A stretch of 63,815 nucleotides of DNA, filler included, from Intoshia linei (Eukaryota > Animalia > Orthonectida), in NCBI GenBank assembly GCA_001642005.1. It is 4 parts of 4 records of this genome, joined end to end, with 100 filler letters (N's around TTAATTAATTAA, not from the genome) between each part and the next. Parts side by side here need not be neighbours in the genome. Positions count along the whole stretch, not along the records: positions 1 to 8,522 come from LWCA01001496.1; 3 more parts are not named here. The stretch is one strand, 5' to 3'. Within the stretch, counting starts at the first letter, position 1. Every line of letters begins with the position of its first letter. Shown piece after piece: positions 1-60,014 of this stretch. The notes under the pieces were generated by a model, which searched no databases, was not told where the DNA came from, and worked only from the letters and a program-made list of their open reading frames with translations. The position numbers and the translations under genes are program-made.

Positions 1-31
1 AAAACCACTAAAATAATATTAAATATTTATT

Positions 32-124
32 TTATTTATTTTTTTTCTTTGAGATTTGGTCTTTGAGAATAATTGTTCCAGCGACATAGAGACCCAAGGT
101 CAAAAACAAAAGAAAAACAGCCAT
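32..124 (-). CDS. Putative micropeptide (30 aa, MAVFLLFLTLGLYVAGTIILKDQISKKKNK), member of local small-ORF family
   Basis: Hand-translated ORF. ATG directly follows the conserved leader TCAGTTTCATTATATTAGAAATCAAGAATTCAAAAT shared with 5391 and 5854. The stop is followed by the family's conserved 3' flank. Confidence 0.4.
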   Translation of the reverse strand: MAVFLLFLTLGLYVAGTIILKDQISKKKNK

Positions 125-246
125 ATTTTGAATTCTTGATTTCTAATATAATGAAACTGAATTAATTTAGTTAACAATTGAAATTTAATACAAACAAAAT
201 TATTTAATAAATAAAATTAAATGCGAAAATGAAACTACATAATGTA

Positions 247-445
247 CACTGCGTTCCAAGTTATTATGCAAACATTAATAATTTAAAAAGTAGTCACTTA
301 ATTCTATTAATTTTTTTATCATATTTATATATTCAACTAATAATAATTTAACGTCCCAAGAAAAATTTAATGTATTCAAAAAAAATGAATACACGAAGAT
401 TTAAGAAAATTTTATGATTTTTGGTGTACCAAATTATTATGCAAA
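247..445 (+). mobile_element. Tc1/mariner-like left terminal region with IR/DR-type internal direct repeat
   Basis: TA|CACTGCGTTCCAAGTTATTATGCAA start; CCAAATTATTATGCAAA repeated at ~429-445. Matching right end not found. Confidence 0.35.
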
Positions 446-1809
446 TGAATATTAAACTATAATTTCAATGTTAATACGAATAAATAAATATTTTTAAATA
501 TTTAAATAATATAATTCATTGTATTTTAAACCAAATTCAAGCAAAAAAATGTAATTAAAGTTTTTATTTCTTGTAACCTAGTAGTTTCGATTCCAGCTAA
601 GTTATGTAATGCTTTTATTTTTTATTTTCATCTATTTCAATAGAACTTAGTTCAATGTATGATTCAAATTCTATAAAGAATGTTTCTGGATCTGTAACAA
701 TGATGCCATCTGCACTCATTATTTTTTGTGGTTTATTGAAGAGGTTCATGTCGTCGGCGCCAATGTGTTATTCGATGTGTACAATTAAGAAGTATAAAAA
801 TTTTTATTTCTATTATCGTTATTTTCCGTTACTTTAGTAATCATTTCTTTAGTTCGATATCACAATATCAATCTGTCATAAATATGAAATGACTTGTTAA
901 ATCGCAAGTGAATGTAAATAATTTTTTATATAACGATATTTATATTTTAAAAAAAATGTACCTTAAAATCAATTGTTTCCTTATGTAACTTTTAAAATAA
1001 AAATGTAACTTTTGTAACTATTAAATTTTAATTAGCTAATTAATATGCATAATATTAATATCATCATGCTTGTAATTTCATGCCGATAAACATAACAAAA
1101 ATTAACTTTATTAACTTTTGGCCGCCCTAATTATAACTTAATTTATAAAAATTCGATTGGTCATTAATATATACGCGTTTTAAAAAGTTACAGAATTAAT
1201 TTTCCCATACGTTATTTAAGAAAATTAATAATAATGCTGATGAATTTAAAAAGCATCCCACAATTTACGTTGTATAAAATTATAAGACTTGTCTAATTTT
1301 AACTAAAAAGAGTAATTTGGTAAAATGAGAGTGTAAAAAGGTTAAATCCTAATAATATTAACAATGATGATTAAACAGTGATTGGCTTGTATATATGTAC
1401 ATTTGTGATAATTTCATACTAGGTTTTAGGTGTTATGTCAAAATGGGCCTACACATTAATTGAATTATATCTGGTAAAAATAATTGCTGATGTATAAATA
1501 AATTGAAAATCTATTTAAAATTTAAATAAGTATGTAGGTTTAAATAAAAATGAATAACCTAATATGAAAAAAATGATCTAAATTGAATATTGATAATGGA
1601 ACAACCAATTTATACAAAAATGGTTACGTAAGTTAAAAAAGTACATATAGTGTATAAATTTTAAACGTAATCAAGATAAAAATTCATCAATCAAACATAA
1701 AACGAGATGTATATTCAAAATTGTTTAGCTCCATAATGTACAGAAAATTTGTATTAAATTTCAAAATCTATCATTAAATTGATTCACTTTAATTAAATTG
1801 GAAAGTTAG

Positions 1810-2735
1810 TAACATATTCTAATATCGTTTTTCGAGGGTGATGTTTTATCGTTTAATTTAATTATCAGAAATTGAATCCTTCAAGGTTAAAAATACTAAT
1901 TGTACTTTTTTTAAAATTCAAACGAGTTTTAGAATTATAAAAAATACACAATCTAATAATTTTAAAAATCAAATTTATCAATGTTGATGATTTTAAAATC
2001 TTACATTTTCACGTCCAAAACCCCAAATTACCCTTTTTTGTAAAATTAAAAAGTCCTAAAATTGTATACAAGAGTGCTTTCCAACCATTTTTGGTTGACG
2101 ACACACATTTTTATCTTAAAAATTTTCTCGACAAACCAGTAAAAAAATAAACTATTGAATAATAAATTTGGTGAAACCAATTTTTTTCTAATACTAATCT
2201 CAAAATAAGCTATATAAAATTAATCTTTCTCATCATTTACTTATATAAAATTGAATGTTTGTGTTACTGTATATTATAAAATTTAACCGTCGTAGAATTC
2301 AAAAAACCCATTTTCTAATAGAGTTTTTCGCTGGGGGTGTTGATATCTATTTTTCAGATTATTGAATAGTCTTTTCTGCTATTGAGTGTGGCTTTTTAGT
2401 TTTTGTTACTATTTGAGCAACCAGTCACTGGCCTCCTAACTCTATCTTATATTTTCACTGTCTCGTAAAAATTTCACATTGCTTTTTTACACATTGATTC
2501 TTATATTTTATGTTACCTGTGTGGGGTATAATAAAATTTTCTTGGAAATTGGTGGTTCGTGTATAATTTGAATTGGGAACCACTGCTTTAAAATTTGAAT
2601 GGTAACATGTTTGCTAATACATGTATTTACATGTTTATTTAAAATTAAATTTTATTTTTTGGAGGTAAAATTTGAAACATATGCCCTCGGCAGAACTAGC
2701 TAGTTTTTATACGAAGTACAAATCAGTCAAGCTAG
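1810..2735 (+). mobile_element. Nested Helitron-like repeat segments (5' terminus at 2233, 3' terminus at 2735) with hAT-like MITE remnant (~2072-2585)
   Basis: A|TCATTTACTTATATAAAA at 2233; TACGAAGTA hairpin then CAAGCTAG|T at 2735; TTGGGAACCACTG hAT-like end at ~2585. Confidence 0.55.
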
Positions 2736-2980
2736 TATAATATAATAGTATCTAAGAATATATTTGTAAAAGATGAATGTTTGTGCATATGTTAATACAT
2801 ATAATTCATACTAGATCCTAGTAACTAGGGTGTCAATTTTTTTGACAAATTGTCGAATTTTGTTGGCGCCTAGTTTTAATAGTGTGCATTTTTGGATTTA
2901 TAATATTATTCTGCATTCTTGTTTTATAAATTAACGATTCTATCAAACCATAATGAAAAAACCACTTAGTTCAATTTTTC

Positions 2981-3819
2981 ATATGTTTTGTGATGCATAA
3001 TGCGATTAAACCAGAATAAGAATGTTATGGTATTGAAGGAGAATTCGACGATGTTTGAAATATATTAAATACGATAAAGATATATACTACATGGTGACGT
3101 ATCGTATATCATGGGATTACAAAAAAATGATCGGAAACGAAATAATGACTTGGTTTCATGTTGAAATATATTCCGAAACATTTATGAGTTATTTGTGCAA
3201 AAGGAACAATATATCAGGAAGATATTTATGAAATGTATAAAACCANAAAACTTGGAAATAACAAATTTTATATATTAAACATTAACATTGAATTTTGTTA
3301 AACTGATCAAGTAAACAATCGAGCTAATACCTCTTGAATTCTTGATTTCGTTACATATATAAAATTAAAAATTTGTCCAAATTTTTTTTTTTAAAACCAA
3401 AATTCAGAGAAGTAATTTCATTTTCTTTAAATAATTTTGTTTTAGTATGGAATTAATTACAATTCCTATACAATTGGAAGGAAGGATTTTAAGAGCCTTA
3501 ATTGATTCCGGAAGTGCAGATAGCTACATATCGGAACAATATACGGGTAATAACATATGTTTTGTGATGCATAATGCGATTAAACCAGAATAAGAATGTT
3601 ATGGTATTGAAGGAGAATTCGACGATGTTTGAAATATATTAAATACGATAAAGATATATACTACATGGTGACGTATCGTATATCATGGGATTACAAAAAA
3701 ATGATCGGAAACGAAATAATGACTTGGTTTTATGTTGAAATATATTCCGAAACATTTATGAGTTATTTGTGCAAAAGGAACAATATATCAGGAAGATATT
3801 TATGAAATGTATAAAACCA
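2981..3819. repeat. Near-identical ~265-bp direct duplication (2981-3245 and 3556-3819)
   Basis: Direct sequence comparison; the first copy ends at the single N at 3246. Confidence 0.85.
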
Positions 3820-3838
3820 CTAAAAAAATATTAAATAT

Positions 3839-3943
3839 TTATTTACATTTTAAACATTTACATTGTTGGACTTTCTTATTTTTAGATTCGTTAACAGCAA
3901 CACCGGTACCAACACAAAGAACAATTCCACATGCGACAGCCAT
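3839..3943 (-). CDS. Putative micropeptide (34 aa, MAVACGIVLCVGTGVAVNESKNKKVQQCKCLKCK), possibly a degenerate family member
   Basis: Hand-translated. CGIV...GVAVNESKNKK aligns with CGIV...GVAIYEARNRKK of the 5854 ORF. The family start upstream reads ATA rather than ATG, and the signal-like segment is in another frame. Confidence 0.35.
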   Translation of the reverse strand: MAVACGIVLCVGTGVAVNESKNKKVQQCKCLKCK

Positions 3944-5390
3944 TGAAGAATATCAATAATTTCAACGGTAAGCCAACTTAATAGTATAGGAATTATATTT
4001 TGAATTTTTTTAACTTGATTTCCAATATAATGAAACTCATTTAATTTAGTTAACGACTTTACCGTTGCAATACAAACAAAATTTTTTATGTAATGTGTTA
4101 ATATAAACTGATTATAATCAGTATCGAACTTACTGTACCTGAGCCCTCTTCGGGTTCTCGTCGAAATATTTGTAAAATGGGGCTTCATTTTTCCAAATCA
4201 AGCATTAAAAAATTATATTCTTCAATATAATAACTATTTAATGTGTTATTTTTTAAATATCAAGTCAAGAGTTTTAGAGAGATTGTTGGGTTATATGACA
4301 CTATGCATTGCATAGTTTGTTCAAAAAATATTTTAGGATTTTACAGTGAAAATGTTTTGAATGTTTCATTATAAATCTTTTTAAAACAATATGAATCAAA
4401 GAAACTTATGTTTATCACATAATATTTGGGGAGTTTATTTATCTCAATTTTTGTAAATTCTTATTTCTGTATACTACATCGATTCTATACACTCACAGTT
4501 GTACTGTATTTTTATTCAAATTATAGTTTCGTTGTCACATGTAATATTTATTTATCAGAAAATTATATTTGTACAATTTTTTGTTAAATTTCAATCCTTG
4601 AGTAAATGGTTTTATTTTATAATTTAATTAATTTAATTAGTTATTAATAATTTGTTTTTAAATTGAGCATTAAAAAAATGATTTCTTGAATATCACAACT
4701 ATTTTGTGTAAAATTTAAAATAACAAGTCAAGAGCATTAGTGAGATCGTGATAATGGGTGTATAATCTTAAAAATTGTCATAAATAGCTTAAATTCCAGA
4801 AAAAAACATTTGGTATTAATAATTAACGGAATCAGCCCTTTAAAACATATTTCGGGTATATTTTACCAACATTGTTATACGTATAGATATTTGTATCAGT
4901 ACAATATTTTCTTTCATTTGTAGGATGGTTAATTATTTCAAATTTTTTGTTTTAATAAAATAGTTTCGAAATAAAAAAAATTAATACTATACTGCTTTTT
5001 TCACCGTGAAGGCGTCATTTAATCAGATTAAAATTTTTGGTGTGTGTTAGCAGGATACAACTGTACCACCTGTAATTTTTTTTAAATTCTACGGTTTTTT
5101 CTCAATTATAAGCAGACCACTGAAATACAAATTTAACCATACATTTCAATTTTTAAAATTTGATTCTAACTTGATTTTTGTGGTTTTTATTGACGTTCAA
5201 ATTTCGGTCATTTGAAAACGTCTATAAACATTATTGCATAAATAACAGAAATTTGAACGTCGATAGGGCTCATTGTGTAATTTCGTTTTGGCATTTAATT
5301 TTATTTATTAGAAAATTTTGTTTGTATTAAATTTCAATCGTTAACTATATTCATTCAGTTTCATTATATTAGAAATTAAGAATTCAAAAT

Positions 5391-5543
5391 ATGCATTCTA
5401 TTTTACCTTTTCAAATCATTTTACTTATTGGATTGCTGATAAACAGAGTTCAAGGGTTTCTTTTTATGTGCACTGTGCTATGCTGTATAATGGGAAGAAA
5501 CTCATGTTTTTCACATTATTTTGGGATGGGTTTATTTACCTAA
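5391..5543 (+). CDS. Putative secreted Cys-containing peptide (50 aa, MHSILPFQIILLIGLLINRVQGFLFMCTVLCCIMGRNSCFSHYFGMGLFT)
   Basis: Hand-translated. Signal-peptide-like N-terminus nearly identical to the 5854 ORF; same conserved leader. Confidence 0.4.
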   Translation: MHSILPFQIILLIGLLINRVQGFLFMCTVLCCIMGRNSCFSHYFGMGLFT

Positions 5544-5853
5544 GTTTTATTATATTAGAAGTCAAGAATTCAAAATTTATTTGAAACACTTGCTGACTGT
5601 ATTATTTTGCTTTCTAATAAAAATATATCTTCTAGATTCTTTGGACAATGTTTTGCATAGATTTTATCCTTTCTTAATTCTTCTACATTGGTTGTATACA
5701 CTAAAAGTCTTAGTTTTAAAGTATACATTATGTAGTTTTGTTTTAGCATTTAATTTTATTTATTAGAAAATTTTTGTTTGTATTAAAGTTGAATTGTTAA
5801 CTAAATTGATTCAGTTTTATTATATTGGAAATCAAGTTAAAAAAATTCAAAAT

Positions 5854-6051
5854 ATGCATTCTATTTTACATTTTCAAATCATTTTACTTATTGGATGGCT
5901 GACTAACAGTGTTCTAAGCTGTATTTTTACTTGCGCTGGATGTGGGATTGTCATGGCGTGTAGTGTTTCAGGTGTTGGAGTTGCCGCTGTTATTGCTGCT
6001 GTCGGTGTTGCTATTTACGAAGCTCGGAATAGAAAGAAAAAGAAAAAATAA
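5854..6051 (+). CDS. Putative small secreted/membrane peptide (65 aa): signal-like N-terminus, Cys cluster, Gly/Ala/Val helix, polybasic tail
   Basis: First ATG in the 5794 ORF; GC-richer than surroundings; AATAAA downstream; paralogous segments nearby. Confidence 0.5.
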   Translation: MHSILHFQIILLIGWLTNSVLSCIFTCAGCGIVMACSVSGVGVAAVIAAVGVAIYEARNRKKKKK

Positions 6052-7029
6052 AAATTTATAAAATAAATATTTAACATTATTTTAGGGGTTTTATACATTT
6101 CATAAATACCTTCCTGATATATTGTTCCTTTTGTAAAATTAACCCATATAGTATGTAGATTGAATACAATCAGTTTCGAACCTACTGTACCCGATCTTTC
6201 TTTGGGTTCTCGACAAAATATTTATCAAATCAGATTTCATTTTTGATTCAAATTGAGCATTAAAAAAATGATTTTTTAAATCACAACTATTTTGTGTAAA
6301 ATTTAAAATATCAAGTCAAGAGCCTTAGTGAGATTGTGATAATGGGTGCATAATCTTGAAAATAAAGTCAAAATAGTACAATCCTAAAAATTGTCATAAA
6401 TAGCATAAATTCCAGAAAAAAGAAAATTGTATATATACCGGTATTTTCTTTTTTAAATATGATGGTATATATTCAGATTTGCTTTGGATAAGAAAAAAAC
6501 ATTTTTTATTAATAATTAACATAATCAGCCGTTTAAAAACATATTTCGGGTGCATTTTACCAACATTGTAATATGTATAGATATTTGTATCAGTACAATG
6601 TGTTTTTTTCATTTGTAGAATGGTTAATTATTTCAAATTTTTTGTTTTAATAAAATAGTTTCGAAATGAAAATAATTAATACTATAGACAATAGTCTATA
6701 GTGCTTTTTTCACCGTAAAGGCGTCATTTAATCAAATTGAAATTTTTTGTGCGTGTTAACAAAATATAACTGTACCACCTGTAATTTTTTTTAAATTCTA
6801 CTGTCTTTTCTCGATTATAAGCAAACCACTGAAATACAAATTTTCAGTGAAATTTTTAACTAAATAAAATTTGAATATAAGCAGTTTCTGCTTGACAAGA
6901 AAGCAATTAAAAACTGACAAATATATAATTGAATACTGACAAAATACTTTTTATAATTGATATTTTAGTGTGTATACTGACAATTTTATGTTGAAAATAC
7001 AGTTAATTTTTTATTAAAAAATGTCAGTA

Positions 7030-7776
7030 TTTTAAAAGTTCCGAAGGAATTAATTATATAGATTTTCGCCCATATTTCTTTATTGGAAATGTGTAGATGT
7101 TCAATGCACATTTTTATTGAAATTGTAGGATCAATATTTACATTTTCAATTATTTTAATTGAAATATTTGAAAAATATTGGTTGAGAATATATTAAAAAT
7201 TATTTTTTATCGGGAATGCGTAGATTTCTCGGGTTGAACTTTTGTATTTATATCAACTGGAATAAGCTCTATCAGAATAATTTTTTTTTTTAATTTTCGG
7301 ACTGTTAATTATTTCACATTTTTTGTTTTAATAAAATATTTCAAAAAAAAAATATGAATACTAAAATTCTTGCTCGACAGAGAAGTCTTCACTTATTCGG
7401 ATTTAAATTTTCTGTGTGTTAACAGGATACAACTGCACCACATGTAATTTTTTCAAATTATAGGGCTGTTTTTATTAAAAAAAAAAGGTAATTTGTGGTT
7501 TTGGCCTGAAAATATTTTTTTTAAATTTAAATTTATGATTTTAAAATCTGTATTAGAGTGTACATTTTTTTAAATTCTTGAACTCGTTTGATTTTCAAAA
7601 AAAAGGATAATTGAGCTTTTTAACCCGTAAGATGTGAGTTTAGGAGGTTGAAATTTATCTTACTTTTACCCGGAAAAAACTGTAATAGAAATGTGGACTT
7701 TATAAAATTCTAAGACTGGTAGTTATTGAAATAAACGATAACACAGACAAACAAAGCATATTATATAAGTAAGGAT
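7030..7776 (-). mobile_element. Non-autonomous Helitron-like dispersed repeat copy
   Basis: Shares GTTAACAGGATACAACTG and CTGGAATAAGCT cores with many other copies; ends in TATATAAGTAAGGA|T (reverse of the 5' A|TCC terminus). Confidence 0.6.
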
Positions 7777-7938
7777 ATGCAGCAGTTAAAAAATATAGAA
7801 ATGCTAACAAATTTCAAATGTTTCCAACACGCATAGTATTAATTATTTTTGAAAATAAAACATTATTTTTTACTCATTTTAACACATTTATAACATAATA
7901 TCTATAAATAACAAATGTATAAGGCAACTCCAAAACAT

Positions 7939-8263
7939 GATGGGAAGAAACTCATGTTCTTTACATTATTTTGGGATGGGTTTATTTACCTAAGTTTTAT
8001 TATAGTAGAAGTCAAGAATTCAAAATTTATTTGAAACACTTGCTGACTGTATTATTTTGCTTTCTAATAAAAATATATCTTCTAGATTCTTTGGACAATG
8101 TTTTGCATAGATTTCATCCTTTTTTAATTCTTCTACATTAGTTGTATACACTGAAAGTCTTAGTTTTAAAGTATACATTATGTAGTTTCGTTTTCGCATT
8201 TAATTTTATTTATTAGAAAATTTTTGTTTGTATTAAAGTTGAATTGTTAACTAAATTGATTCA
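7939..8263 (+). repeat. Near-identical copy of 5489-5813
   Basis: ATGGGAAGAAACTCATGTT...CTAAATTGATTCA matches with few substitutions. Confidence 0.9.
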
Positions 8264-8522
8264 ACCATACTGTATTATCATAAATTATGATATATGTATT
8301 ATCATATATGTAAATTATCATAATTATATTTTTTAAAAGATTCCTGAATGAATCCATCTTCATCTATAGATCTTTTTGCTAAATAATTATCTATCATTGG
8401 TTGATTTCAATTTTTATCGTCACGAGTAATATTATGTACAACCTTTAAATAGTATGATAAAGATGAGGTAGAACCACCACCACATTTAATTTTTTTGGAA
8501 CACGCAGTACATGTGGCTTCAC

Positions 8523-8622
8523 NNNNNNNNNNNNNNNNNNNNNNNNNNNNNNNNNNNNNNNNNNNNTTAATTAATTAANNNNNNNNNNNNNNNNNNNNNN
8601 NNNNNNNNNNNNNNNNNNNNNN
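8523..8622. other. Assembly gap with TTAATTAATTAA spacer
   Basis: N run with the same central spacer as the other two gaps. Confidence 0.97.
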
Positions 8623-9028: not shown

Positions 9029-10999
9029 AAATATAATTTTTTGTATGCTTAATTAATATGTTTATGTATGTTTAATGTTTAATGTATGTTAAAGTATGTT
9101 TAATTGAATATTTGAGATAATTGCCAAAAACTTTATATGAATCCTTACTTACGCAAAATTACATATCTGTAAAAATGATTCGTAAATTAAAGTTGTTCTA
9201 CGGGTTTATTCTAAAATTTAAATCAAAACATTTATTAGGAAGCTATCTTAAATTTTATATTTAATTAAAAATTTTGTATCAGAAATGTAAATCTAAAGTT
9301 TACACTATAAAATAATTATAATTTAAATAAATTTTTTTTTTTATTTCTATCAACATTTCATTAAATTATGCAATATTAAAACATTTGTTTCATGGATCTT
9401 ATGCGACAAAGGTATTACTCACGAAAAAGTTATTACATATTACTGTTATCAAGTGACACATGCGTACAAAAAATATTTTCCTTCCAACCTTTCAAAAAGG
9501 GACTTGCCACTACAATGTCGCCAATCAATTAGTATAACAAAAATGATGGTAATAAATCTAACCTGTAATAATAAATATAATATATAATTGAACATAAAAA
9601 AGTTATCAATTTTGTAATCTATTAAATCAAAATTTCTAAATCTTTTGTGCTCATAAAATAAATATTTACATATGAAACGATTTAGTAGTTGTCAAAAAAA
9701 GAAGAAATTAATTAAAAATATTGATTATACATATTCAGTGTGTTATTAAAAATATTGAAAATACATTTATCATGAATACAACTTTTTGATTTACACTACA
9801 TTATAATAAAATTATAATTTTACAATTTTACAATTACAATTTTTACAATTTTAATACATCAAATATAGTTAAATCATATTAAACTTTTAAATTTTATAAT
9901 TCATAATGACTTATATGAAAGCTTTACATTGAAGAGTCAAATTTAAAATTTAAGAATAGCAAAATCAATTTGAAACAAATATGTCGATTAAAAAGCATAC
10001 TATTGAATACTTTTAATAACGTAAAACTATTGCATGTCTTTAAGTTATATTTATAGTGTTTTGAACCTGTACTTTGAACACAACAGTTTAATTCAATCAT
10101 ATATTTAGTGGATACGACTCTATACTTTGTCTTGTACCATTCAAAAAATTATTCAATATTTTGACATTTATTATAATTAATCAATATGGTGTACCTAATA
10201 ATTATAATGCATTTGGATTAAACGTAAAATATTATTGAATTATTTTATTAAAATAATACTAGACTTTGCTGGAATTGGAATTATATTTATTTTTGTATTA
10301 TAGTATATAGCCGATACATCTCTCAATATTAATTTACTGGATTAATGGAGAATAAAAAAAAGTTTTTTCACTTCATTTCAATTCTTTTTACTATTGCTAC
10401 ATATATAAATACCATCATGTTTGCCTTTGGAAAATATAATGACAGTAATCATATATAATTAATAATTTTATTCTTACGTATAATAATATATTTCCATAAT
10501 AAAAACTACAATATTTTTGAACATATCAATCAAGATTTGAATATAATATGTTTGAATTAATACAATTCTTGTTTTAAGTAATATTTCTCGGTTTGCATAT
10601 ATGTTTGTACCATTGTCAATGGTCCATTCTACTTTTAAAATGTTTTAAATGGTAAAATGTGCACAAAGCTATAGTTAAATTAAAATAATTACCATATTCG
10701 GGCATATAAATACAGTGCAGTACATTTTAATAAATAATATTTGATACAAACCGTGTATTGTTCGGTAAATAAACTATGAGTCAATGAATGTATCCAAAAA
10801 ACAATTTTTCATGCATAAAAAAACAAATTAATTATTCATAAATATGAAGTATATATTTTATATACCGTGTTTGGTCATATATGTCCCAGACATATAAGTA
10901 TCAGTAACTCATTTTTTTGTAATTGTAATTATTGATCTGTTCTATAATATTCTTATTTACTATATATAAGCAAGTAAACTGTACATTGTACGTAAATTA

Positions 11000-11490
11000 A
11001 TTATTTTATATTTTTTGTTTTAATAAAATATTTCCGAAAAAAAATATATGAATACTAAAATGCTTTTTTGACCGTGAAATCGTCACTTATCAGATTGAAA
11101 TTTTTTGTGTGTGTTAACAGAATACAACTGTACCACCGGTAAATTTTTTTAAATTCTAGGGCTGTTTTCATTAAAAAAAAAGGGTAATTTGTGGTTTTGG
11201 CCCTGAAGATATAATTTTTTTTAAATTTAAATTTATGATAATGTTTATGATTTTAAAATTTGTATCACAGTGTATATTTTTTTATATTCTCGAATTCGTT
11301 TGATTTTAAAAAAGAGGGGAAATGGGGGGTTTGACAGGTAAGATGTAAATTTCGAAGGTTGAAATTTATATTACTTTAACTTCCGAAAAAAACTGTTATA
11401 GAAATGTGGACTTTATAAAATTTTAAGATTCGTAGTTATTGAAATAAACGATAACACACAGACAAGCAAAGCATTTTATATAAGAAATGA
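11000..11490 (-). mobile_element. Helitron-like dispersed repeat copy
   Basis: Highly similar to 7305-7776 and 58620-58928. Confidence 0.6.
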
Positions 11491-11999
11491 TAATAAAATT
11501 AAGCATAATTATGCTTATTTGAAAGAATTTTTCTCTAAATGATTGATAAAATCCGATTTTCTCAAAATTAATTGATACAAAATTTATAATAAATTTTAAT
11601 TGATTGACAGCATTACCTGCGCATCATTGAAATCTACAAGTTTTGTTCATTCCATTGAAAAATTTGCTTAAAAGTGTTACTCATTTTCTCTCATATACAA
11701 CGTATAATATACATTGTATAATATACATATTGGAAGGTTATAAACTTTTAATTTAATTTTTTCTTTAATAATAAATTAATTTATAAATTTTTTTAATAGA
11801 ATAGGCTAAACATTATTATAATATAAACTATTTTAATGTTATGGTAAATATTAAATTTCATTTTCCAAAATTGAGTTATTCAGTGTCAAACACTTAATTT
11901 TATTTTTTTATAAATGAAATGAGCACAAAAATTAAAAAATGACATATCTTTTGGAAGGCGTTTGAAATTCATTACAATTTTTCAGACTTTCAAAAACTT

Positions 12000-13349
12000 G
12001 TGTGGACCAATGGGGGTCCATATGGACCCCGTTTTATAAAAATTGCATGCTTTAAGTGTGTTGTATCTATCATAAATCAGAATATTTGTATATATTATAA
12101 TTTAGTATTACATATTGATTCGAACCGACTATTTCAATTTTCGTTATCTGGAAGACCACCATCAAATACTCATTTTAATGATTTTCTAAAGTATTATCTA
12201 TTTGCTGTGTCTTATATATGGCAAGGATCGTGGTTGCTTTATGGTTTATACGATTTCGTCAGAAATTGTACGATACGTTATAATTCTGATAAAACAATCT
12301 ATCCTTATAAAGACAATGTCTTTAGTTTGGTAAAATACTTTCAATATAAATTACGTCTAAATTCCTATTTACAACAAGAAAATAAAAAAAAAATTTGGAA
12401 TACACAAAGACAGGTGGAAAATAATTATTTTTTAGAAAAAATAAACGATGATAAACCATCGACTTATATATACAGTAAAATTTACCAAAATATGAAATAC
12501 CTACATAATCTAACTACATTTAATAAAAATTGTAAAAAACTAAATAATTACATGTGTTTAAGCATGGGAAATTTGCAATACAGTAATATTTCCCTAATAA
12601 AAAAAATGGATAGTAAAAAATCAAAATCTTTTGAAAATACAATAGATTTCGGTAATGAATGTCCATTAAATAAAAGCACATCAAAATCAATCAAATTATT
12701 GCGAAACTTAAAATTTGAGTCGAATAAAGACAATAAGACGGAACATGCCCTAGCGATACCTACATTTTTGTACATCATTTTTGCATTCTCTTTAGCTAGC
12801 AATATTTCTTGGTTGCTCATTTGGCAACAAAATAATATCATTGTAGCATTAATATTTGTCAACATTATGGACGCCACACTTTACGCTACGTTGATTGTAA
12901 GTGTAAATCACTTGAAATGTGTAATGACGCAATTAAATATCGAAATTTGGATGTTTCGATTATTTTTGCAAAACGGATTGGCTTTTTATGCTACTGTTGG
13001 TTCGGTTGCAGCTTTGTATATTTTTTCAAATACCATGTCAAATGGACCGTATGAAGAAGAAGAAATAATCAACTCTTCAGATATTTCAGCTACAATAATA
13101 TTTTGCATTAATGCTGTAGGGTGGTGGATTGTTGATACGTTTATATATCTTAATGAGTTGCGATACATTTATACACCTTACTTTGTTTACATTATTACTC
13201 TATTCTATTTATTAATCGTTGAATACCATGTTGAATTGAATTATCACAAAATTATGGTCATTATTCTTTTAATCATTGTTACTTCAATGTTTATTTTGAA
13301 AATTGTATTCTTGTGTTTTCATGTTTATGTTAAAAAATTCAAAATTTGA
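12000..13349 (+). CDS. Multi-pass membrane protein of an uncharacterised metazoan family; true 5' end uncertain
   Basis: 449-codon ORF with about 7 hydrophobic segments; motifs YIWQ and WMFRLFLQNGLAFYAT; long hydrophilic N/K-rich insert. Confidence 0.7.
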   Translation: MWTNGGPYGPRFIKIACFKCVVSIINQNICIYYNLVLHIDSNRLFQFSLSGRPPSNTHFNDFLKYYLFAVSYIWQGSWLLYGLYDFVRNCTIRYNSDKTIYPYKDNVFSLVKYFQYKLRLNSYLQQENKKKIWNTQRQVENNYFLEKINDDKPSTYIYSKIYQNMKYLHNLTTFNKNCKKLNNYMCLSMGNLQYSNISLIKKMDSKKSKSFENTIDFGNECPLNKSTSKSIKLLRNLKFESNKDNKTEHALAIPTFLYIIFAFSLASNISWLLIWQQNNIIVALIFVNIMDATLYATLIVSVNHLKCVMTQLNIEIWMFRLFLQNGLAFYATVGSVAALYIFSNTMSNGPYEEEEIINSSDISATIIFCINAVGWWIVDTFIYLNELRYIYTPYFVYIITLFYLLIVEYHVELNYHKIMVIILLIIVTSMFILKIVFLCFHVYVKKFKI

Positions 13350-17218: not shown

Positions 17219-20200
17219 ATGGACGAAAATAATAATTTATGTTTGATCAAACCCTGTCGATACTATGATGCTGAATATTCTGAATGTAAAAGTAATATTA
17301 ATTAAAGTAAACCTAATAAGAAATGTAGCATTTAAATTTTTTAGAATAATGAAATTTAGAACCATCTTCGTAATTTACAATTAGACATGGTAGTGTTTCT
17401 CAGCCAGCTCACTCCACAATTATATAATTGGACCCATTTAAGAATTTATATAAAAAAATATTAATGACAATACTTGGATTCCCTTGGCAGTGTTTTTCCA
17501 TCTTTTTTCTATTGGGTGGACTTGGAAGCAATTAAAAACATTTGGCACACTAGTATATAACAAAATAGTAAAAGTTATATATTTGTTTGGTGCATACTGA
17601 AAATCTTTACTATAGTTTAACATTTTGCAAGGAAAAGCTACAAATTAAGAAAAAAAGTTGTTTTGATATGAAAAACTGATTAAATTGTAGAGCTCGTTTT
17701 CAATTTTTCGCTTGCCACACATAAAATGTCCTAGAGCGCACCGTTTTGAGAAACATTGTCTTAAGGGTATAGGATCTTGGTATTTCTAAATATCATTTGA
17801 TCAAATCAATAGAAAAATGTAATTATCTACAAAATGTACAAAAATTTGAATTTGCTTCTATGAATTTAAATGTACTAGTAATGGTATTCGAAAATCGATA
17901 CAAAAAATCTCAAAATTGTATTTTTCGGGTTGATTGGAATTTGTTATTTTACATTTTATTTTTGGAATTCATTTCTCGTCTTTTATTTCGCTAAAATCAT
18001 ATCATTCCCAACTTTGTCGAACTTTTACAAATTAACATAGTACATGTACTATCTTGTAACAGCTGACTTTAGTCTTATCTTTAATTATACATACATTAGT
18101 TTTGCAATAAAATAATATCAATGTCACATAAATAATTAAAAATGGAGTGAAAAATATTGCATCCAAAACAATTATGTTTTAATTTTTGTAATCAATATTC
18201 TCTTAACTAATATAATTTATTAGGCATCAACGGTAAATTTATGCATGAATACATTTATGGACAAAGAACATACAAATGTAGCATATTTTTGAATTTTTAT
18301 AAACAATGCATCAAATTTCAACAAACTAAAAACGAACAAGATGCAACAGGTATTTAAATTTGTAGAGTGATACTTTTACATCTTGTGGAAAATTTTTTTA
18401 AATTAAAAAATTAAATCATTTTTTTAAGTCAAAAAATTAAATTTGAATACTACATTGTATCACGCATTTTGTAATTATGTTTAATCTTGCAATCTTTTTT
18501 GTACATTTTGACAATTATGTATTGATAACCATCATTTATTTCTGTCTTATATTGACAGTACAGTATTGTAGTAAAAAGTAATGTTTGATTTTATTAAAAT
18601 CTAGTTATTAGTTCGAACAGTTATACATTGTGGTTAAATTTAAACGTTTTTCAATGTATTTATATTTATCCCAATTATTTGTATTTTTTTAAATCAATTT
18701 TATATCAATAATTAACGGAATCAGCACTTTAGAAACATATTTCAGATGAATTCTATAACATTGCAAAACATTGGGGGTCTTACTAAATTAATTAATTCAG
18801 TGAATTACAATGAATTACAGTAAATCTTAGTGAATCACAGTAAAAATTTTTCTGAATCAGTCATTTTGGCATTTCAGTCATTATGAAAATTTTTCTTTTA
18901 TTTTAAATTTTTTCAATATTTATCATTCAAAAATCCAATTTTCCTTTGATATTGTTCAATTTCATTACTGAATATTAATAATACTTGATAATATATTAAA
19001 AAAATTTTTTTACCCGGAATATGTAGATTTTATAGGTTAAAATTTTGTATTTATATGTATAAATCAACTGGAATAATCTGTATCAGAAAACTCTTTTTTT
19101 TTTTTTAATTGTACGACCGTTAATTATTTCAAATTTTTTGTTTTAATAAAATTGTTTCGAAATAAAAAAAAATGAATATTAAAGTGCTTTTTTGACCATG
19201 AAGGAGTCGCTTATTCAGATTGAAATTTTTTGTGTGGGTTAACAGGATACAACTGTACCATCTGTAAATTTTTTAAATTCTAGGACTGTTTTTATTTTAA
19301 AAAAAAAATGTAATCTGGGTTTTTGACCGTGAAAATTACCTTTTTTCAGGTTACTATTTATGACAATGCTTATGAACAGGGCTGTATTGAATTTCTGATG
19401 TCAGCGACGTTGGCTGGTAACAGCAACAGCGGCTGCTGTACCGGTATAGCAAGGCTGTTTTTCCAGCATAAAATTTCATATATTACATTGAATTTTAGCA
19501 GATGTAAAATGAAAATATCACTAAAACCTTGTCAACCGTTTATTGTCTATACAAGAAGCGATAAGATTTAGAAAAAAATTTCTATGAAATATACGTGAAA
19601 TTTGCTAATTAACAATTATTCATTTATAAAAAAATCATAGGTTCATTAATAAGTTTTAATTGTATGTACTTAAATTTTTTTTTAGTAAATAATATGTCGT
19701 TAATCAAATGAAAATCTAGGAATAATACGCAATTTAAAACAATTTTGGGTTTACCCCTCAAACATTAGTATAAGTAATTTTTTATTAAATTAATTCTATT
19801 TTTCAAAATGTGTCATCACTTTGTAAGTTTTTTTTCTTTGGCAGACAAAAATAAATTAAATATTAACATTATATATATTCTTCCATATATCTTATATATA
19901 AAGAATCATACAATGTTGATTCAAATGGGCTGTTTCTAACATTTGAGTGAATATTTCTGTGTTGTGAAAAACATCTTTCTATAGCCGCTTAACTGAATAC
20001 ATATATTTTAGTTTTATTTTGCATAGATTACATATTCACAATTTATTTTTTCAAAGTAATTTAACAAACATTTTGAAACTTGAACGATATATATTCACTT
20101 TAAATTAAACAGATTTATAACAAAATCAAATTCTAAAATAAACGATTTTGATTGTAAAATATTGCTGTACTTTTTGCTGCATGCAACACAGCAATGCTTT

Positions 20201-21821: not shown

Positions 21822-27146
<5,325 letters not shown>

Positions 27147-30023: not shown

Positions 30024-30123
30024 NNNNNNNNNNNNNNNNNNNNNNNNNNNNNNNNNNNNNNNNNNNNTTAATTAATTAANNNNNNNNNNNNNNNNNNNNN
30101 NNNNNNNNNNNNNNNNNNNNNNN
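30024..30123. other. Assembly gap
   Basis: N run with TTAATTAATTAA spacer. Confidence 0.97.
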
Positions 30124-32217: not shown

Positions 32218-38993
<6,776 letters not shown>

Positions 38994-50613: not shown

Positions 50614-53600
50614 ATTCTAAAACACCAAAAACCATACCATTTTCCTTTGGAAACCCAAATGTATTAATTACAAAGGGGTTAATTCATTATTATAAGTAAG
50701 ATTTCAAATATATTTATATTTATACAAAATACATCAATACTTTGATTAATTTCAATATTTTAGAGATGAAAAAGATGCTGATTTATCTAAACTAGAAAAT
50801 ATTAAAACATTATGTATGATAGAAATACCTACCACATTCACAATTCATAATTTGTTATATTTTTTACGATGTGAAAAGTAATTTTTAAAAAAGATTCAAG
50901 TACTTGTTTTAAATTAATCAATGTATAGTAATCACATTGAATCTGTTACAGTTTTATCCGACAGTTTGCCTGAATCATATATGGTTCTATTAACTTTTGA
51001 AAATGTGGTAATTAAAAATTTATCCAGTATATTTTTTGTATTTTAATTGTATTTAGAAATATATGAAAAGTTTTTACAAAAAAAACAATACTCAAGATTT
51101 GAACGGTTTTATTGTTGCAAAGTGTCAATTGATTTTTATATCAAAAATTGACATTTATCGTAAATCGGATGTATAATTTTATTTTATTTTAAATTATTCC
51201 ATCAAAGATTTTTTAATGTACATTATTATTTTAAAAGATGGGTCAACTCTTTTAGAAAAGGGTGTGTTTTATGACAACGACTAATTAGTCGTTAAATTAT
51301 AATTTATTATAATTATACATTTTATTTAGGAGTCACAATCTCTATTAAATTTTGTTGAATTTCCAACCTGTCCTGTTTGTTTAGAAAAATGGGTAAAAAT
51401 TTAAGTTTTTTTTATTTATTTCAGTTTAGAAAAATGATACAATTTTACGCATAATATGTAACCACACTTTTCATTCGAATTGTTTACGTAAATGGAAAGA
51501 TTTAACGTAAGTTTGAATACTTTTTAGTTCTGTTTTCAAATTGACTTTAAATATTGTGGTGTATTTTTTGTGAATCTATCACAGGGGTGGGGAACGTGTG
51601 GCCTAATGGTCAGGTTGAGTGGCACCTAGCTCTGCCGAGGGCACATTTTTATTATACCAAAAAAATAAATTCACGTTGAAAATCTAACTTAAAAATCCTA
51701 CTATTCACTATTATCAATCCTTTAAAGGAGTGGTTCTCAAAACTTGTTTCAGGTGGGACCATCATATCACATTACTTTTTACTTTAAAGTGAATTATTCT
51801 ATCTTAATTTTTTTTTTGTTAACATTTGCGTAAAGAATTTTAAAAGCAATTGTTATCCCATTTTTTTAATTTTTAGACAGAATGTGTATATAATATAAAA
51901 AATAAAGTAAAAAAAGTCCAATCCTAAAAATTTTCATAAATAGCATATTTATTATTAATTAATACCGCATACCAAGATGTTACGCAAAGAGAAATCAATT
52001 TGGAATATTCGTTGTTTTTAATATAAAATGTCTCTCTCCTCCCTATCCTCTTACTACCCTCACTGTCTCCCTTTCGCCCATTTCTGTGGTCGGAATCTGT
52101 TTGTCTATTTATGTCCTTCAATATCCAGTATTTTCATTTGTTTGAAAAATTTGAAAGGTAAGTGATTTGAACCGAGTACTTCTCTAGATTATAGTCTGTC
52201 ATAGTAGTCACTACAAAATCGTCATCGCAAAACTTATTTTTTTTTATATAATGAAATTTTATCAATATATATTTAGATATTTTAATTTTTGTGTTTAAGT
52301 GTTAAACTAATTATTTAATTGAAAAATTGATTAAATATCATAATCATGAACTTCATTTTATACTTTCTCATCTGTCAACCTTAAATGTTAGAAGCAGATT
52401 AATTCAATTTAAATATAAAATTTACAAACACCAGTATGACATTATAAGTCAAACTATTTACCACATATATGAAAATAAGGTATAATTATCTGAAAAACGG
52501 TGTTTACACCATAAAATGTTTTTATTTTGTAATATTAGTTGGTTCTGCAGTTTTTCAGTCTTAACTTTGGTACCACATTGATCTTGAATCGATTTAAAAT
52601 TTAAATGAATATAAAAAAGACAATTAAACAGGACACGATACATTTAAATATATAAAAAACAAATTTAGTTAATTTTTTTAATTCTATTACTATTAACATA
52701 TAATACAATAGAGTCAGATTCAATTCAACAAAATAATCGAAATCATTCCAACGAACAATTACGTAAGTTTCGGTTTAATATACCATCTCAAACGGCTTTT
52801 TTCTTGTTTTTTGGTTATTATCGAAATCCTTTTTTAATTTTACTGTCACCTAAACACCATAATATAAACAATAAATGAATACACACATATAACAATATTT
52901 AATTTTTTAGTATTTGCATTAGCATCTGAAATCATTTTTTCTATATACGGCGTCGTTTCACCTTCGTGGTTATCCNTCAATTCAACAAAATAATCGAAAT
53001 CATTCCAACGAACAATTACGTAAGTTTCGGTTTAATATACCATCTCAAACGGCTTTTTTCTTGTTTTTTGGTTATTATCGAAATCCTTTTTTAATTTTAC
53101 TGTCACCTAAACACCATAATATAAACAATAAATGAATACACACATATAACAATATTTAATTTTTTAGTATTTGCATTAGCATCTGAAATCATTTTTTCTA
53201 TATACGGGGTCGTTTCACCTTCGTGGTTATCCACTATATCAATATGACTAAGAACGTTTTAGTATGTCCACTAGAATGTATATACGAATTAAAGCCAGGA
53301 GTATTCATAAATAATGAAAATGGAGTTTTATTTGTGGCACGATAAAGTTATATTGTACTTCCGTACAACTCCAACCAAAATATCGATCCAACATTTGCCT
53401 CCTTGTAACGTTTTTGCTAACCATCTTTTTATGGTTTGGTTTGCTCTAAAATAATATGAGAAAAAATAAAGTATAATAAACCTCTCTATCTGTCCTTGTG
53501 ATTGGGGATGCCGAGGTCTGCCATGTATTATTCCAACTTTCATTTGATTGCATGTCTATTATTTCTGAATTTTTAAATTCCCTCCCGTTATCTGTATGCA

Positions 53601-56600
53601 GTGTTTTTGGAGGTCCAATTATCGAAAACAGTTTTTCAAATTTGGATCTCAGGTTCACAGCACTTTTGTTTTTTAATTTCGTTACCCACATATACTTCGA
53701 ATAGCAATCAATTACATTCAAAATATACTTGTAGCCCCGATTTTCCCCCTCATATTCCAATAGACTTATGCAATCTGCCATATATCTTTCCCTTGGTTTC
53801 ATTGTTATTATTGGCTTAATTCTTGAACTGTGACCAAATTCATACTCATTTGACAGAAATTACAATTTTTGATAACCTGTTATGAAACATTTTACATAAA
53901 CCATAATTTAATGGAAACCTCCGCAATATCACATCTTTTAATGTTATATGATATATTGTCGATATGCTCCTTTGTCTAAGTATAAATTGATACAATTAAA
54001 TTCGTATTGCAACCTTAATAACTCCACAATGACCAATTTTATGAAAATTATTGATGAATTCATACTTTTTTTCCATCTCATTATCAGAAAATACTATCAA
54101 TTTCTCACCATCTATGCATAGTATATTGAAATACATGTTAAAATACCTTTTAAAAAAACAATTCACATTTACAACTGTAAAATAAACCGTCTTTTCTTTT
54201 AAACGTTTTTCAGCTTGTCTACTTTTACACTCACAGTTTCCGTCCGTAATTAAATTAATTTTATCTTGAAACGTTTTGAAAGAAAATTTGCACACCATTG
54301 AGTGATATTGTGAAATGTTAATTAAATGTGATCAAATAAATAAATGTTTTGGTATTTATTGTTGTCACAATAGAAACATGATATGTAACATCTTGGTATA
54401 CGACAATTAATTTAATTATTTAACATGTTTGTTGATGTAGTTTAAGTTGATTTATTTGAAACAAAATGTTTTGAAAATGAGAATTTAAAAATTGCGTAGC
54501 AATGAAAAAAAATTCCGAAGGAATCAATTATATAAATTTTCACTTATATTTCTTTATTGGAAATGTGTAGACGTTCAATGCAAATTTTTTTTTGAAATTG
54601 TAGGATTAATATTTACATTTTAAATTTTTATTAATTATTATTAATCGAAGTATTTAAAAAATATTGGTTGATAATATATTAAAAGTTATTTTTCACTGGG
54701 AATATGTAGATTTCTGGGTTTAAAACTGTTTATTTACAAAAACTGGAATACTTATCAGCATAATTTAAAATGATGGGTAATTTGTGGTTTTAGCCGTGAA
54801 GATGAGGTTTTTGAAATTGAAATTTATCATAATTTTTTTTATTTTAAAATATATATCAGAGTGTATATTTTTTATGAATTCTAGGATTTGTTTTATTTTT
54901 TAAAAAGGATAATTTTTGGGTTTTTAACTCTGAAGGACTAAATTTACGAAAATGAAATTGACAAAAAACTGTATTATAAATAGGTGTTTTTAAAAATTTA
55001 CACTTCTTATGTTCTTAAATAAATGGTAACAAACAGATAGACATGTATGTTTATAGTTAAATCCTAAACTTACTTAAAATTTAATATCTGTGTGTGTTAC
55101 CGTTTATTTAAAAAATTAAATGTGTAGAATTTCACAAAATTTAATATCTAAGACATATTTTTGCGGATAATGTTTTATCTAACTTTTATTTCACGAATTT
55201 GAGTTATTCAAGGTCAAAACCCAATTTCCCCTTTTTTTAAAAATAAAATCAGTCCAAAAATTTAAAATAACATTTAAAAATTCTGGGACGCGTTTTAAAA
55301 TCATTAACATTTTCTTAAATCTCGGCCTCGGAAACGCACACCTTCATGGTCAAAACCAAAATTATCCTTTGTTTTAAAAATAAAAATTTTATAAAACATA
55401 CATTCTAGAATACTCATTTTAAAATCATAATCATTATCATAAATTACAACCTATAAAAATTTCAAAAAAGTGGATTTTCACGATCAAAAGCTCAGATTAC
55501 TTTTTTTATAAAAAATGACAATAGTCCTATAATTTAAAAATAAATACGGCTTATACAGTTATCTTCAATTAACACACACAAAAGATTTTAATCTCACAAA
55601 GTAGTGCCTGCACGGTAAAAAAGCCATTTCGTGGATTTTTTTTATTTGTTAACTATTTTATTAAAACAAAAAATTTGAAATAATTACTTGTGCTAGAATT
55701 TAAAAAAGATTTCCTCTTATACAGCTTATTCTAGTTTATTATTATTATACTGCTATTATTTTATTTGATCATTTTAATTTTTTTATTCTAAAACTATATT
55801 TAGGTGTCCTATTTGTAGATACAGTCAACTGCCTAATACTACAACAAAAAATTGCTGTTCTGGTTGCGGAGTAATTCAGAATTTGTGGATTTGCTTAGTA
55901 TGCGGAGATATTGGTTGTGGTAGATATTTGGATGGTCACGCTTCAAAGTAAATATTTTAATAAACACGTAAATTATTATTCACTGATGATTATCAGTCTA
56001 TCACCTTGACAGTTGTAAGGTCTTATGTCACCTTGTATGAAAATCTTTTAAAATTTACAAATTTAAAATGAAACGCAAAATTTTTAGTTCATTCTAATAA
56101 TATATTTCCTATCTGATGGGCCACTTTCGATAAATACGATGACGAGAACTTGAAATTTGAAAAAAAATTGTTTATTTTATGGTAAAAAAGGTAAAAACAT
56201 TTTCAAATTATATTACCATTCTGACCCATCTAATATCACAATAAAAATCAATTCAACTTCATGTTATCCCCTTTATGGACCTCTTATGGATGAAGTGAAT
56301 AGTATGTGATCAAAATATTTTCCTATTCGATCACATGTAACATTCTATAACCACTAGTTTACGGCACATTAAATTTCATCTTTACAACTGAAAAGGTCTA
56401 TTACTATTATCCATTATTTTGCTAATTTCATTAAAATAAAAATATTATTATATTTACAATATTAATATAAATAATAAAATATAATTTAGACATTATGAAT
56501 TGACAAAGCATACATATGCCATGAATATAAATACTGACGAAGTTTGGGATTATTCTGGAGACAATTTTGTTCATAGATTGATTCAAAATAAAAAAGATGG

Positions 56601-59914: not shown

Positions 59915-60014
59915 NNNNNNNNNNNNNNNNNNNNNNNNNNNNNNNNNNNNNNNNNNNNTTAATTAATTAANNNNNNNNNNNNNNNNNNNNNNNNNNNNNN
60001 NNNNNNNNNNNNNN
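59915..60014. other. Assembly gap
   Basis: N run with TTAATTAATTAA spacer. Confidence 0.97.

Follow-up and report, generated by a model that had tools for sequence, protein, structure and literature searches.

In the genome of the orthonectid Intoshia linei (assembly GCA_001642005.1), a stretch of 63,815 nucleotides (nt) joined from four parts, called the window below, carries most of what we describe as a small orphan gene family. One intact, annotated gene (open reading frame 4, ORF4) lies here and another, A3Q56_02337, elsewhere, and the family further comprises one probable unannotated member (ORF1) and several decayed copies. All family units of the window are found on its first contig (positions 1–8522; the N run starts at 8523). 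The best explanation, to which we give about an even chance (roughly 0.5), is a locally duplicated I. linei family whose intact members are hydrophobic proteins of 65–66 residues that would enter the endoplasmic reticulum (ER) by an N-terminal signal and be anchored in the membrane by a C-terminal helix and lysine tail, with ORF2 and ORF3 as decayed copies. What was observed is that the units are duplicated, that two genes are intact and conserved in a distinct pattern, that RNA-like contigs cover ORF4, and that both ORF2 and ORF3 contain breaks. The family falls among the small membrane proteins that are specific to one parasite lineage.

Intact members and their constraint

ORF4 is already a called gene. 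An earlier sequence-only reading of this DNA had proposed an unannotated family of four short ORFs, which holds for ORF1 to ORF3, all without an exact entry, but not for ORF4, which is present letter for letter in NCBI and UniRef. A phmmer search with ORF4 over 1.84e9 representatives returned three proteins: ORF4 itself, the I. linei hypothetical protein A3Q56_02337 (OAF69946.1; UniRef A0A177B6S1), and one repeat protein (P0122, 1719 aa, 20 repeats) that was dropped as a compositional artefact. The same search found no relatives outside I. linei. A profile of ORF4 and A3Q56_02337 matched only these two proteins among 62 candidates of 35–116 aa; longer fused forms of the family lie outside this size range but were covered by the phmmer search.

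A3Q56_02337 (66 aa) shares 58% identity with ORF4 (E 7.5e-12) and is unlinked to it, being located on a separate contig of 39,982 bp. Both proteins are colinear and have a signal-like start, a VSGVGV...GVAIY helix and a KKKxK end. By segment, identity amounts to 12/14 (residues 1–14), 4/8 (15–22), 4/15 (23–37), 13/18 (38–55) and 5/10 (56–65). Residues 1–55 contain no charged residue in one and a single one in the other, while the ends are basic (R58 and R60–K65 in ORF4; K57, K62–64 and K66 in A3Q56_02337). ORF4 has Cys at 23, 27, 30 and 36, of which only the last is present in the paralogue. When neutral change was simulated, crudely, to equal divergence in 3000 runs, a stop codon arose in 78% of them, and only 1.3% had no stop together with at most one charged residue. 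Because random change so rarely keeps the frame open and uncharged, the pair is, as judged from the two sequences, under constraint as a hydrophobic peptide. The unlinked intact paralogue and the RNA-like contigs over ORF4 thus bear out the proposal of a real, lineage-specific and fast-diverging family of small hydrophobic proteins.

Lys occupies positions -3 and -4 from the C-terminus in ORF4, A3Q56_02337 and ORF1, and not in ORF2 and ORF3; such KKxx-type ends occur in 3 of 200 window ORFs of 28–70 aa. ORF4, ORF3 and A3Q56_02337 also have V at -3 and S or G at -1 of a putative cut after residue 22, a site judged by eye using the -3,-1 rule. Database searches added little: neither the four ORFs nor A3Q56_02337 matched Pfam above cut-off, a PDB sequence search with the family proteins gave 0 matches, and Rfam gave only two weak matches under the gathering score. 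In the Atlas, ORF4 was without a feature match, the 0.80 for A3Q56_02337 is chance level, and the structures were generic hairpins only; the best hit of a fold search (Z 6.1) consisted of generic helices. A literature search, also by the locus prefix A3Q56, found no paper on the family; a 2024 RNA-seq study reportedly devoted to plasmodium proteins of I. linei may include these genes.

Repeat units on the first contig

The four ORFs had been described as lying downstream of one conserved leader, with a conserved block at the 3' end of three of them, and all four are present at the positions given (30, 34, 50 and 65 aa for ORF1 to ORF4). Leader and 3' block are real: without gaps, the leader copies L1–L4 are 86–92% and the 3' block copies 91–97% identical in pairwise comparison. 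A 16-nt leader core occurs five times in the window, where 0.02 occurrences are expected, always inside 1–8522; among the five are remnants at 3334–3349, 5558 and 8008. The hydrophobic stretch, the Cys counts, the basic tails and the common MHSILxFQIILLIG start are likewise as described. The features of the family, in order of position, are:

1–41, minus strand: 3' block of unit 1, ended by the contig edge (90% match to the block behind ORF4)
32–124, minus strand: ORF1, 30 aa, one hydrophobic helix and KKxx-type end; unannotated, a probable gene
125–250, minus strand: leader copy 1, likely promoter and 5' untranslated region (UTR); TCAGTT at 160; adjoins the ATG
3183–3349, minus strand: decayed unit with leader remnant (3334–3349) and 3' block copy (3183–3244); single N at 3246
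3757–3844, minus strand: 3' block of unit 2 (80/88 matches to the block behind ORF4)
3839–3996, minus strand: interior of unit 2, namely ORF2 (3839–3943, 34 aa) and 53 nt without a leader-adjacent start; likely a decayed paralogue
3997–4088, minus strand: leader copy 2, initiator-like motif altered
4399–4623, plus strand: decayed copy of upstream DNA plus leader, without ORF (68–79% matches to 5495–5823)
5271–5390, plus strand: leader copy 3; TCAGTT at 5355
5391–5543, plus strand: ORF3, 50 aa, likely a truncated paralogue, in which some 28 codons of the family are followed by read-through into the upstream block that is duplicated
5487–5813, plus strand: upstream block of unit 4, including a leader fragment (5543–5576); 97% duplicate at 7937–8263
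5726–5853, plus strand: leader copy 4; TCAGTT at 5811
5854–6051, plus strand: ORF4, 65 aa, intact gene with signal-like residues 1–22, variable 23–37, conserved helix 38–55 and a basic KKxx-type tail
6061–6148, plus strand: 3' block of unit 4; AATAAA at 6062; likely 3' UTR and polyadenylation region
7937–8263, plus strand: duplicate of the upstream block with partial leader, without ORF

The coding interiors had been said to differ strongly. This stands for four of the six ORF pairs, including all three with ORF1, which do not align (p=0.33–0.90), but alignment succeeds for ORF3/ORF4 and for ORF2/ORF4, with p=0.001 in either case. Part of the K-rich end falls within the common 3' block in both ORF1 and ORF4. 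The four ORFs are not equal variants, and two of them are likely decayed copies.

Decayed copies

In unit 2, no start codon adjoins the leader; the ATG of ORF2 lies 53 nt further on and the TCAGTT motif is altered. The direct succession of leader and ATG is therefore correct for three of the four ORFs and fails for ORF2. The unit contains two ORF4-like blocks in different frames (tblastn E 0.045 each, the best window matches after ORF3), and its similarity to ORF4 is evident as DNA, while the family profile reaches ORF2 only at E 0.62. Hence, ORF2 likely represents a decayed paralogue.

ORF3 resembles ORF4 over about 28 codons, in which 13/84 nt differ. Its last 19 codons (from 5487) are upstream DNA, part of a 327-bp block that is duplicated at 7937–8263 and related to 4399–4623. 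Neither C-terminal helix nor basic tail nor 3' block is present in this copy. Contigs of four of the six listed sequencing runs were examined (X1, X3, X4, X5), and a contig of the DNA run X1 spans the ORF3 junction (5302–5650), which therefore is not an assembly error. ORF3 is likely a truncated, decayed copy that reads into the upstream DNA of the next unit. Further remnants of units are present at 3183–3349, 4399–4623 and 7937–8263. Additional leaders had been reported at about 3335, 5543 and 7992; these remnants exist, but the fragments at 5543 and 7993 stem from one duplication, because both lie inside the 327-bp, 97% block. In X1, joints at contig depth 17 lead from the end of codon 22 in the signal region (5456) into the 3' block, and from there into a downstream repeat. 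They may derive from the A3Q56_02337 locus with the same flanks, the letters between the joints not being shown.

ORF1, a probable third product

The leader and 3' block of ORF1 are well preserved (flanks about 92% identical), and its interior aligns neither to any other ORF (p=0.33–0.74) nor elsewhere in the window. The predicted product has a helix of 19 residues (hydropathy 2.4) and a KKxx-type end, and lacks the conserved N-terminal signal-like segment. Among 126,158 window frames of 25 codons, only 157 begin with a helix that equals the ORF1 helix in hydrophobicity, an optimistic chance figure of about 0.001. Of the 200 window ORFs of 28–70 aa, three combine a hydrophobic 19-mer with a basic tail, ORF1 and ORF4 among them, and these two are the only ones in which the 19-mer is joined to a KKxx end (2/200). 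When 3581 window segments were ranked by the family profile, ORF1 was not among the best 30. Given the preserved flanks and the encoded helix, ORF1 probably represents a true member of the family, unannotated and with one helix and the same tail.

Transcription and the nature of the flanks

For X3 and X4, which belong to the same study, the kind of run is not on record; X5 comes from another study with another organism label, its kind not shown. A GT..AG segment of 42 nt (3547–3588), retained in the DNA contig of X1, is missing from contigs of both X3 and X4, which thus behave as RNA. ORF4 is covered by one ungapped contig each in X3 (5801–6025), X4 (5814–6023) and X5 (5839–6025). These contigs show the same three differences from the window, which are also found in X1, at codons 15, 24 and 45, and all three alter an amino acid conservatively. 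Since the runs were retrieved by this stretch, they indicate presence, not level. The sequence-only reading had named absent transcripts and flanks that are intron boundaries as possible refutations. The RNA-like X3 and X4 contigs speak against the former, and the ungapped cover of ORF4 argues against its interior being an intron or the TTTTAG of the 3' block being used there as an acceptor. The X4 contig starts at 5814, beside the initiator-like motif 5811–5816, but contigs cannot show where transcription starts. A loose end with poly(A) at 6067 in X5 was rejected, as it consists of one A-rich contig of 55 nt with four differences in 35 nt. Coverage blanks over ORF2 and the 5' part of ORF3 (X3, X4, X5) and over ORF1 (four runs including the DNA run X1) were not used as evidence.

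Three further observations concern transcribed sequence near the units. At 5714–5847 and 5982–6115, X4 depth exceeds that of the ORF4 contig (in the first bin, 62 versus 6), and a loose end precedes 5788. The excess may come from other transcripts with leader- or tail-like sequence or from chance matches of AT-rich DNA. The intron at 3547–3588 belongs to a spliced RNA-like transcript on the plus strand (3247–3820; X3, X4), antisense to the 3' block of the family. From 3447 it includes a short aspartyl-protease-like ORF with a DSG motif (Pfam E 0.04–0.25, under cut-off) and an early stop, whether spliced or unspliced. At 5576–5673 and 8026–8132, starting from the end of the leader fragment, X3 and X4 each have a contig of about 98 nt by depth arithmetic, and an X1 DNA contig skips 5549–5682; this piece may be an inserted part of another transcribed sequence. 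A minus-strand ORF of 59 codons in the same place (5570–5749; 8020–8199) gave no Pfam, PDB or exact match.

The conserved flanks look like a co-duplicated promoter with 5' UTR and a 3' UTR, and like neither a high-copy transposon nor intron ends. Should the units instead be non-coding duplicated or mobile DNA, or the boundaries of introns in a larger gene, the ORFs would be incidental. The abundance of dispersed repeats and partial duplications in the region speaks for this possibility, as do the lack of an intact ORF in most local units and the spliced RNA-like contig running antisense over the 3' block. We nevertheless consider it hardly probable at all, given the constraint on a full-length colinear paralogue and the gap-free RNA-like contigs across ORF4. 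The flanks themselves also speak against a transposable-element consensus, a further suspicion of the earlier reading: no pairing of leader with 3' block was found among the 25 longest of 66 inverted pairs or in a self-BLAST of 1–8522, no copy of either occurs in the window outside 1–8522, and the summed DNA contig depth is 19–60 on the leader versus 760–5800 on neighbouring dispersed repeats, a rough measure that gives no copy number.

A membrane anchor or a released peptide?

The proposed family would evolve by birth and death through local duplication of a complete small gene, comprising promoter and 5' UTR, ORF and 3' UTR. Residues 1–22 would target the product to the ER, where the signal might either be removed by cleavage behind residue 22 or stay on as the first helix, and helix 38–55 would anchor the protein in the membrane. 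Residues 23–37 would then face the lumen or exterior and be free to vary, forming the fast-changing part, whereas the KKxx-type lysine tail could retrieve the protein to the ER from the cytosolic side. The product might serve another membrane protein as a small partner. Several points weigh against this explanation. A KKxx match can be inactive, since the KKET of Cisd1 fails to bind COPI and the final residue plays a part, according to the excerpted text of PMC8482578. The predicted fold, a two-helix hairpin, is a weak model of low confidence (pTM 0.34), and the neutral simulation included neither indels nor transition bias. The 28 codons compared between ORF3 and ORF4 (pN 0.17, pS 0.11) are too few to tell neutral decay from selection. 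The RNA nature of X3 and X4 rests on a single splice joint in one study that was retrieved via this very stretch. The chance figure of ORF1 is optimistic because the cut-off was taken from its own value. Lys codons are favoured in a genome of 25% GC, and ORF1 and ORF4 owe their tails to common descent, so that these are not independent.

On the sequence-only reading, which had favoured a secreted or membrane-active peptide, the signal would be cleaved and a hydrophobic, cationic-tailed peptide of 43–44 residues released onto host or microbial membranes; this appears unlikely, if still worth considering. It would agree with the signal-like segment and the plausible cut site in three copies, and with a parasitic stage in host tissue (PMC12249979, excerpt). 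Between ORF3 and ORF4, codons 1–14 differ at 1/42 nt and codons 15–28 at 12/42 (Fisher p=0.0016, for a boundary picked after looking), and the three ORF4 variants in the examined runs all alter an amino acid, although three of three is within chance. The mature part, however, with about 33 uncharged residues that include the conserved 18-residue helix, followed by basic residues, has a stop-transfer layout; its Cys do not form a conserved frame, and basic processing sites are lacking upstream of residue 56. The toxin or antimicrobial pattern of a conserved signal and a variable, Cys-rich mature peptide does not apply either, as the C-terminal helix is conserved, only residues 23–37 vary and the Cys are not kept. 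The intact members are likely membrane-anchored micropeptides rather than secreted toxins.

An anchor of this type need not reside in the ER. Targeting to the mitochondrial outer membrane is known to use a helix with basic C-terminal residues behind it, and the predicted helical hairpins would suit a two-helix or tail-anchored protein of that membrane or another organelle, with its signal uncleaved and the basic tail as targeting element. We regard this as improbable, the most conserved segment being the strongly hydrophobic N-terminus and the small-residue pattern at 20–22 recurring in three copies. Similarly improbable is a parasite-specific, membrane-active system in which promoter and UTRs stay fixed as a cassette around a coding interior that has hyper-diverged or been replaced, its products serving as minimal fusogens or membrane-perturbing effectors at the interface of plasmodium and host; the idea arises because ORF1 has flanks about 92% identical and an unalignable interior that still encodes a helix and a lysine tail. 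A minimal fusogen or membrane remodeller at the cell surface, working like reovirus FAST proteins in the plasmodium or in gametes, seems very improbable. If the signal were cut, a very short outer segment rich in Gly, Ala and Cys would be left, next to a single helix in which Gly and beta-branched residues abound and to basic residues clustered beside the membrane. Against this stand the size (65–66 aa versus about 100–200), a cytosolic tail of 10 aa versus 40–140 with an amphipathic helix, and the KKxx end, which would favour the ER over the surface; phmmer and profile searches also revealed no similarity to viral proteins.

Genomic surroundings and significance

The window is AT-rich (22–33% GC) and contains animal-type genes for an Abl kinase, ribosomal protein S4 and an ion channel. 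For the Abl exon (23206–23772), identity amounts to 97% with I. linei A3Q56_04772 and to 41–63% with the remaining listed matches. A single-domain ion-transport protein of 421 codons is encoded at 33604–34869 (minus strand), an open frame of 468 codons, which has hydrophobic segments and matches nothing in Pfam, lies at 11943–13349 (plus strand), and the integrase core of a retroelement fragment (rve, E 6.8e-11) is found at 53446–54331 (minus strand). High-copy dispersed repeats, probably non-autonomous transposons, occupy intergenic DNA at 4900–5100, 6340–6800, 7030–7780, 10985–11530, 18977–19375 and other sites, with a summed contig depth of up to about 5800 in X1. Duplicates of 99% identity lie beside single Ns (at 3246 and 52976), namely 2980–3250/3554–3824 (271 bp) and 52720–52975/52977–53232, and are possibly scaffolding artefacts. 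The gaps at 8523–8622, 30024–30123 and 59915–60014 consist of two 44-N runs around a 12-nt AT-only spacer (seen at 8567–8578) and are linker, not biology.

I. linei is an obligate parasite of marine invertebrates, and orthonectids, whose plasmodium stage inhabits host tissue, are among the most reduced animals (PMC12249979, excerpt). A family restricted to this lineage, constrained as a membrane peptide and turned over by duplication, is a candidate lineage-specific innovation whose members are small enough to be synthesized and tested, and ORF1 suggests that a member of 30 aa escapes annotation. As long as no function is assigned, the family is an orphan of a common type.

Comparison with known systems

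The closest counterpart of ORF4 is A3Q56_02337, which differs from it almost wholly in residues 23–37 and in having one Cys instead of four. According to an excerpt of PMC11860864, conotoxins are grouped into superfamilies on the basis of their signal sequence and the arrangement of their disulfides. Like conotoxin-type precursors, the I. linei family is multicopy and has a conserved signal-like N-terminus (12/14 residues between ORF4 and A3Q56_02337; 1/42 nt between ORF3 and ORF4) ahead of a faster-changing segment. Unlike them, it has no conserved Cys framework (1/4 Cys common) and no propeptide processing site; in place of a hypervariable soluble mature region there is a conserved hydrophobic C-terminal anchor, with 13/18 identical residues at 38–55.

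The FAST proteins p10, p14 and p15 are small, combine a short outer segment with a single helix and basic residues clustered next to the membrane, and measure about 100–200 residues with an endodomain of 40–140 (PMC7412057, excerpt). ORF4 and A3Q56_02337 share the basic cluster, but they have 65–66 aa, a 10-residue tail and a signal-like N-terminus, and no homology was found. A single pass with an outer segment of <40 residues would hold only if residues 1–22 are cleaved, and the models show two helices. With KKxx-bearing ER membrane proteins such as Cisd2 and yeast Wbp1 (PMC8482578, excerpt), the family has in common a membrane helix and a C-terminal KKxx. It differs from these in having neither a folded domain nor homology, and its tail is a run of lysines that offers a putative COPI motif.

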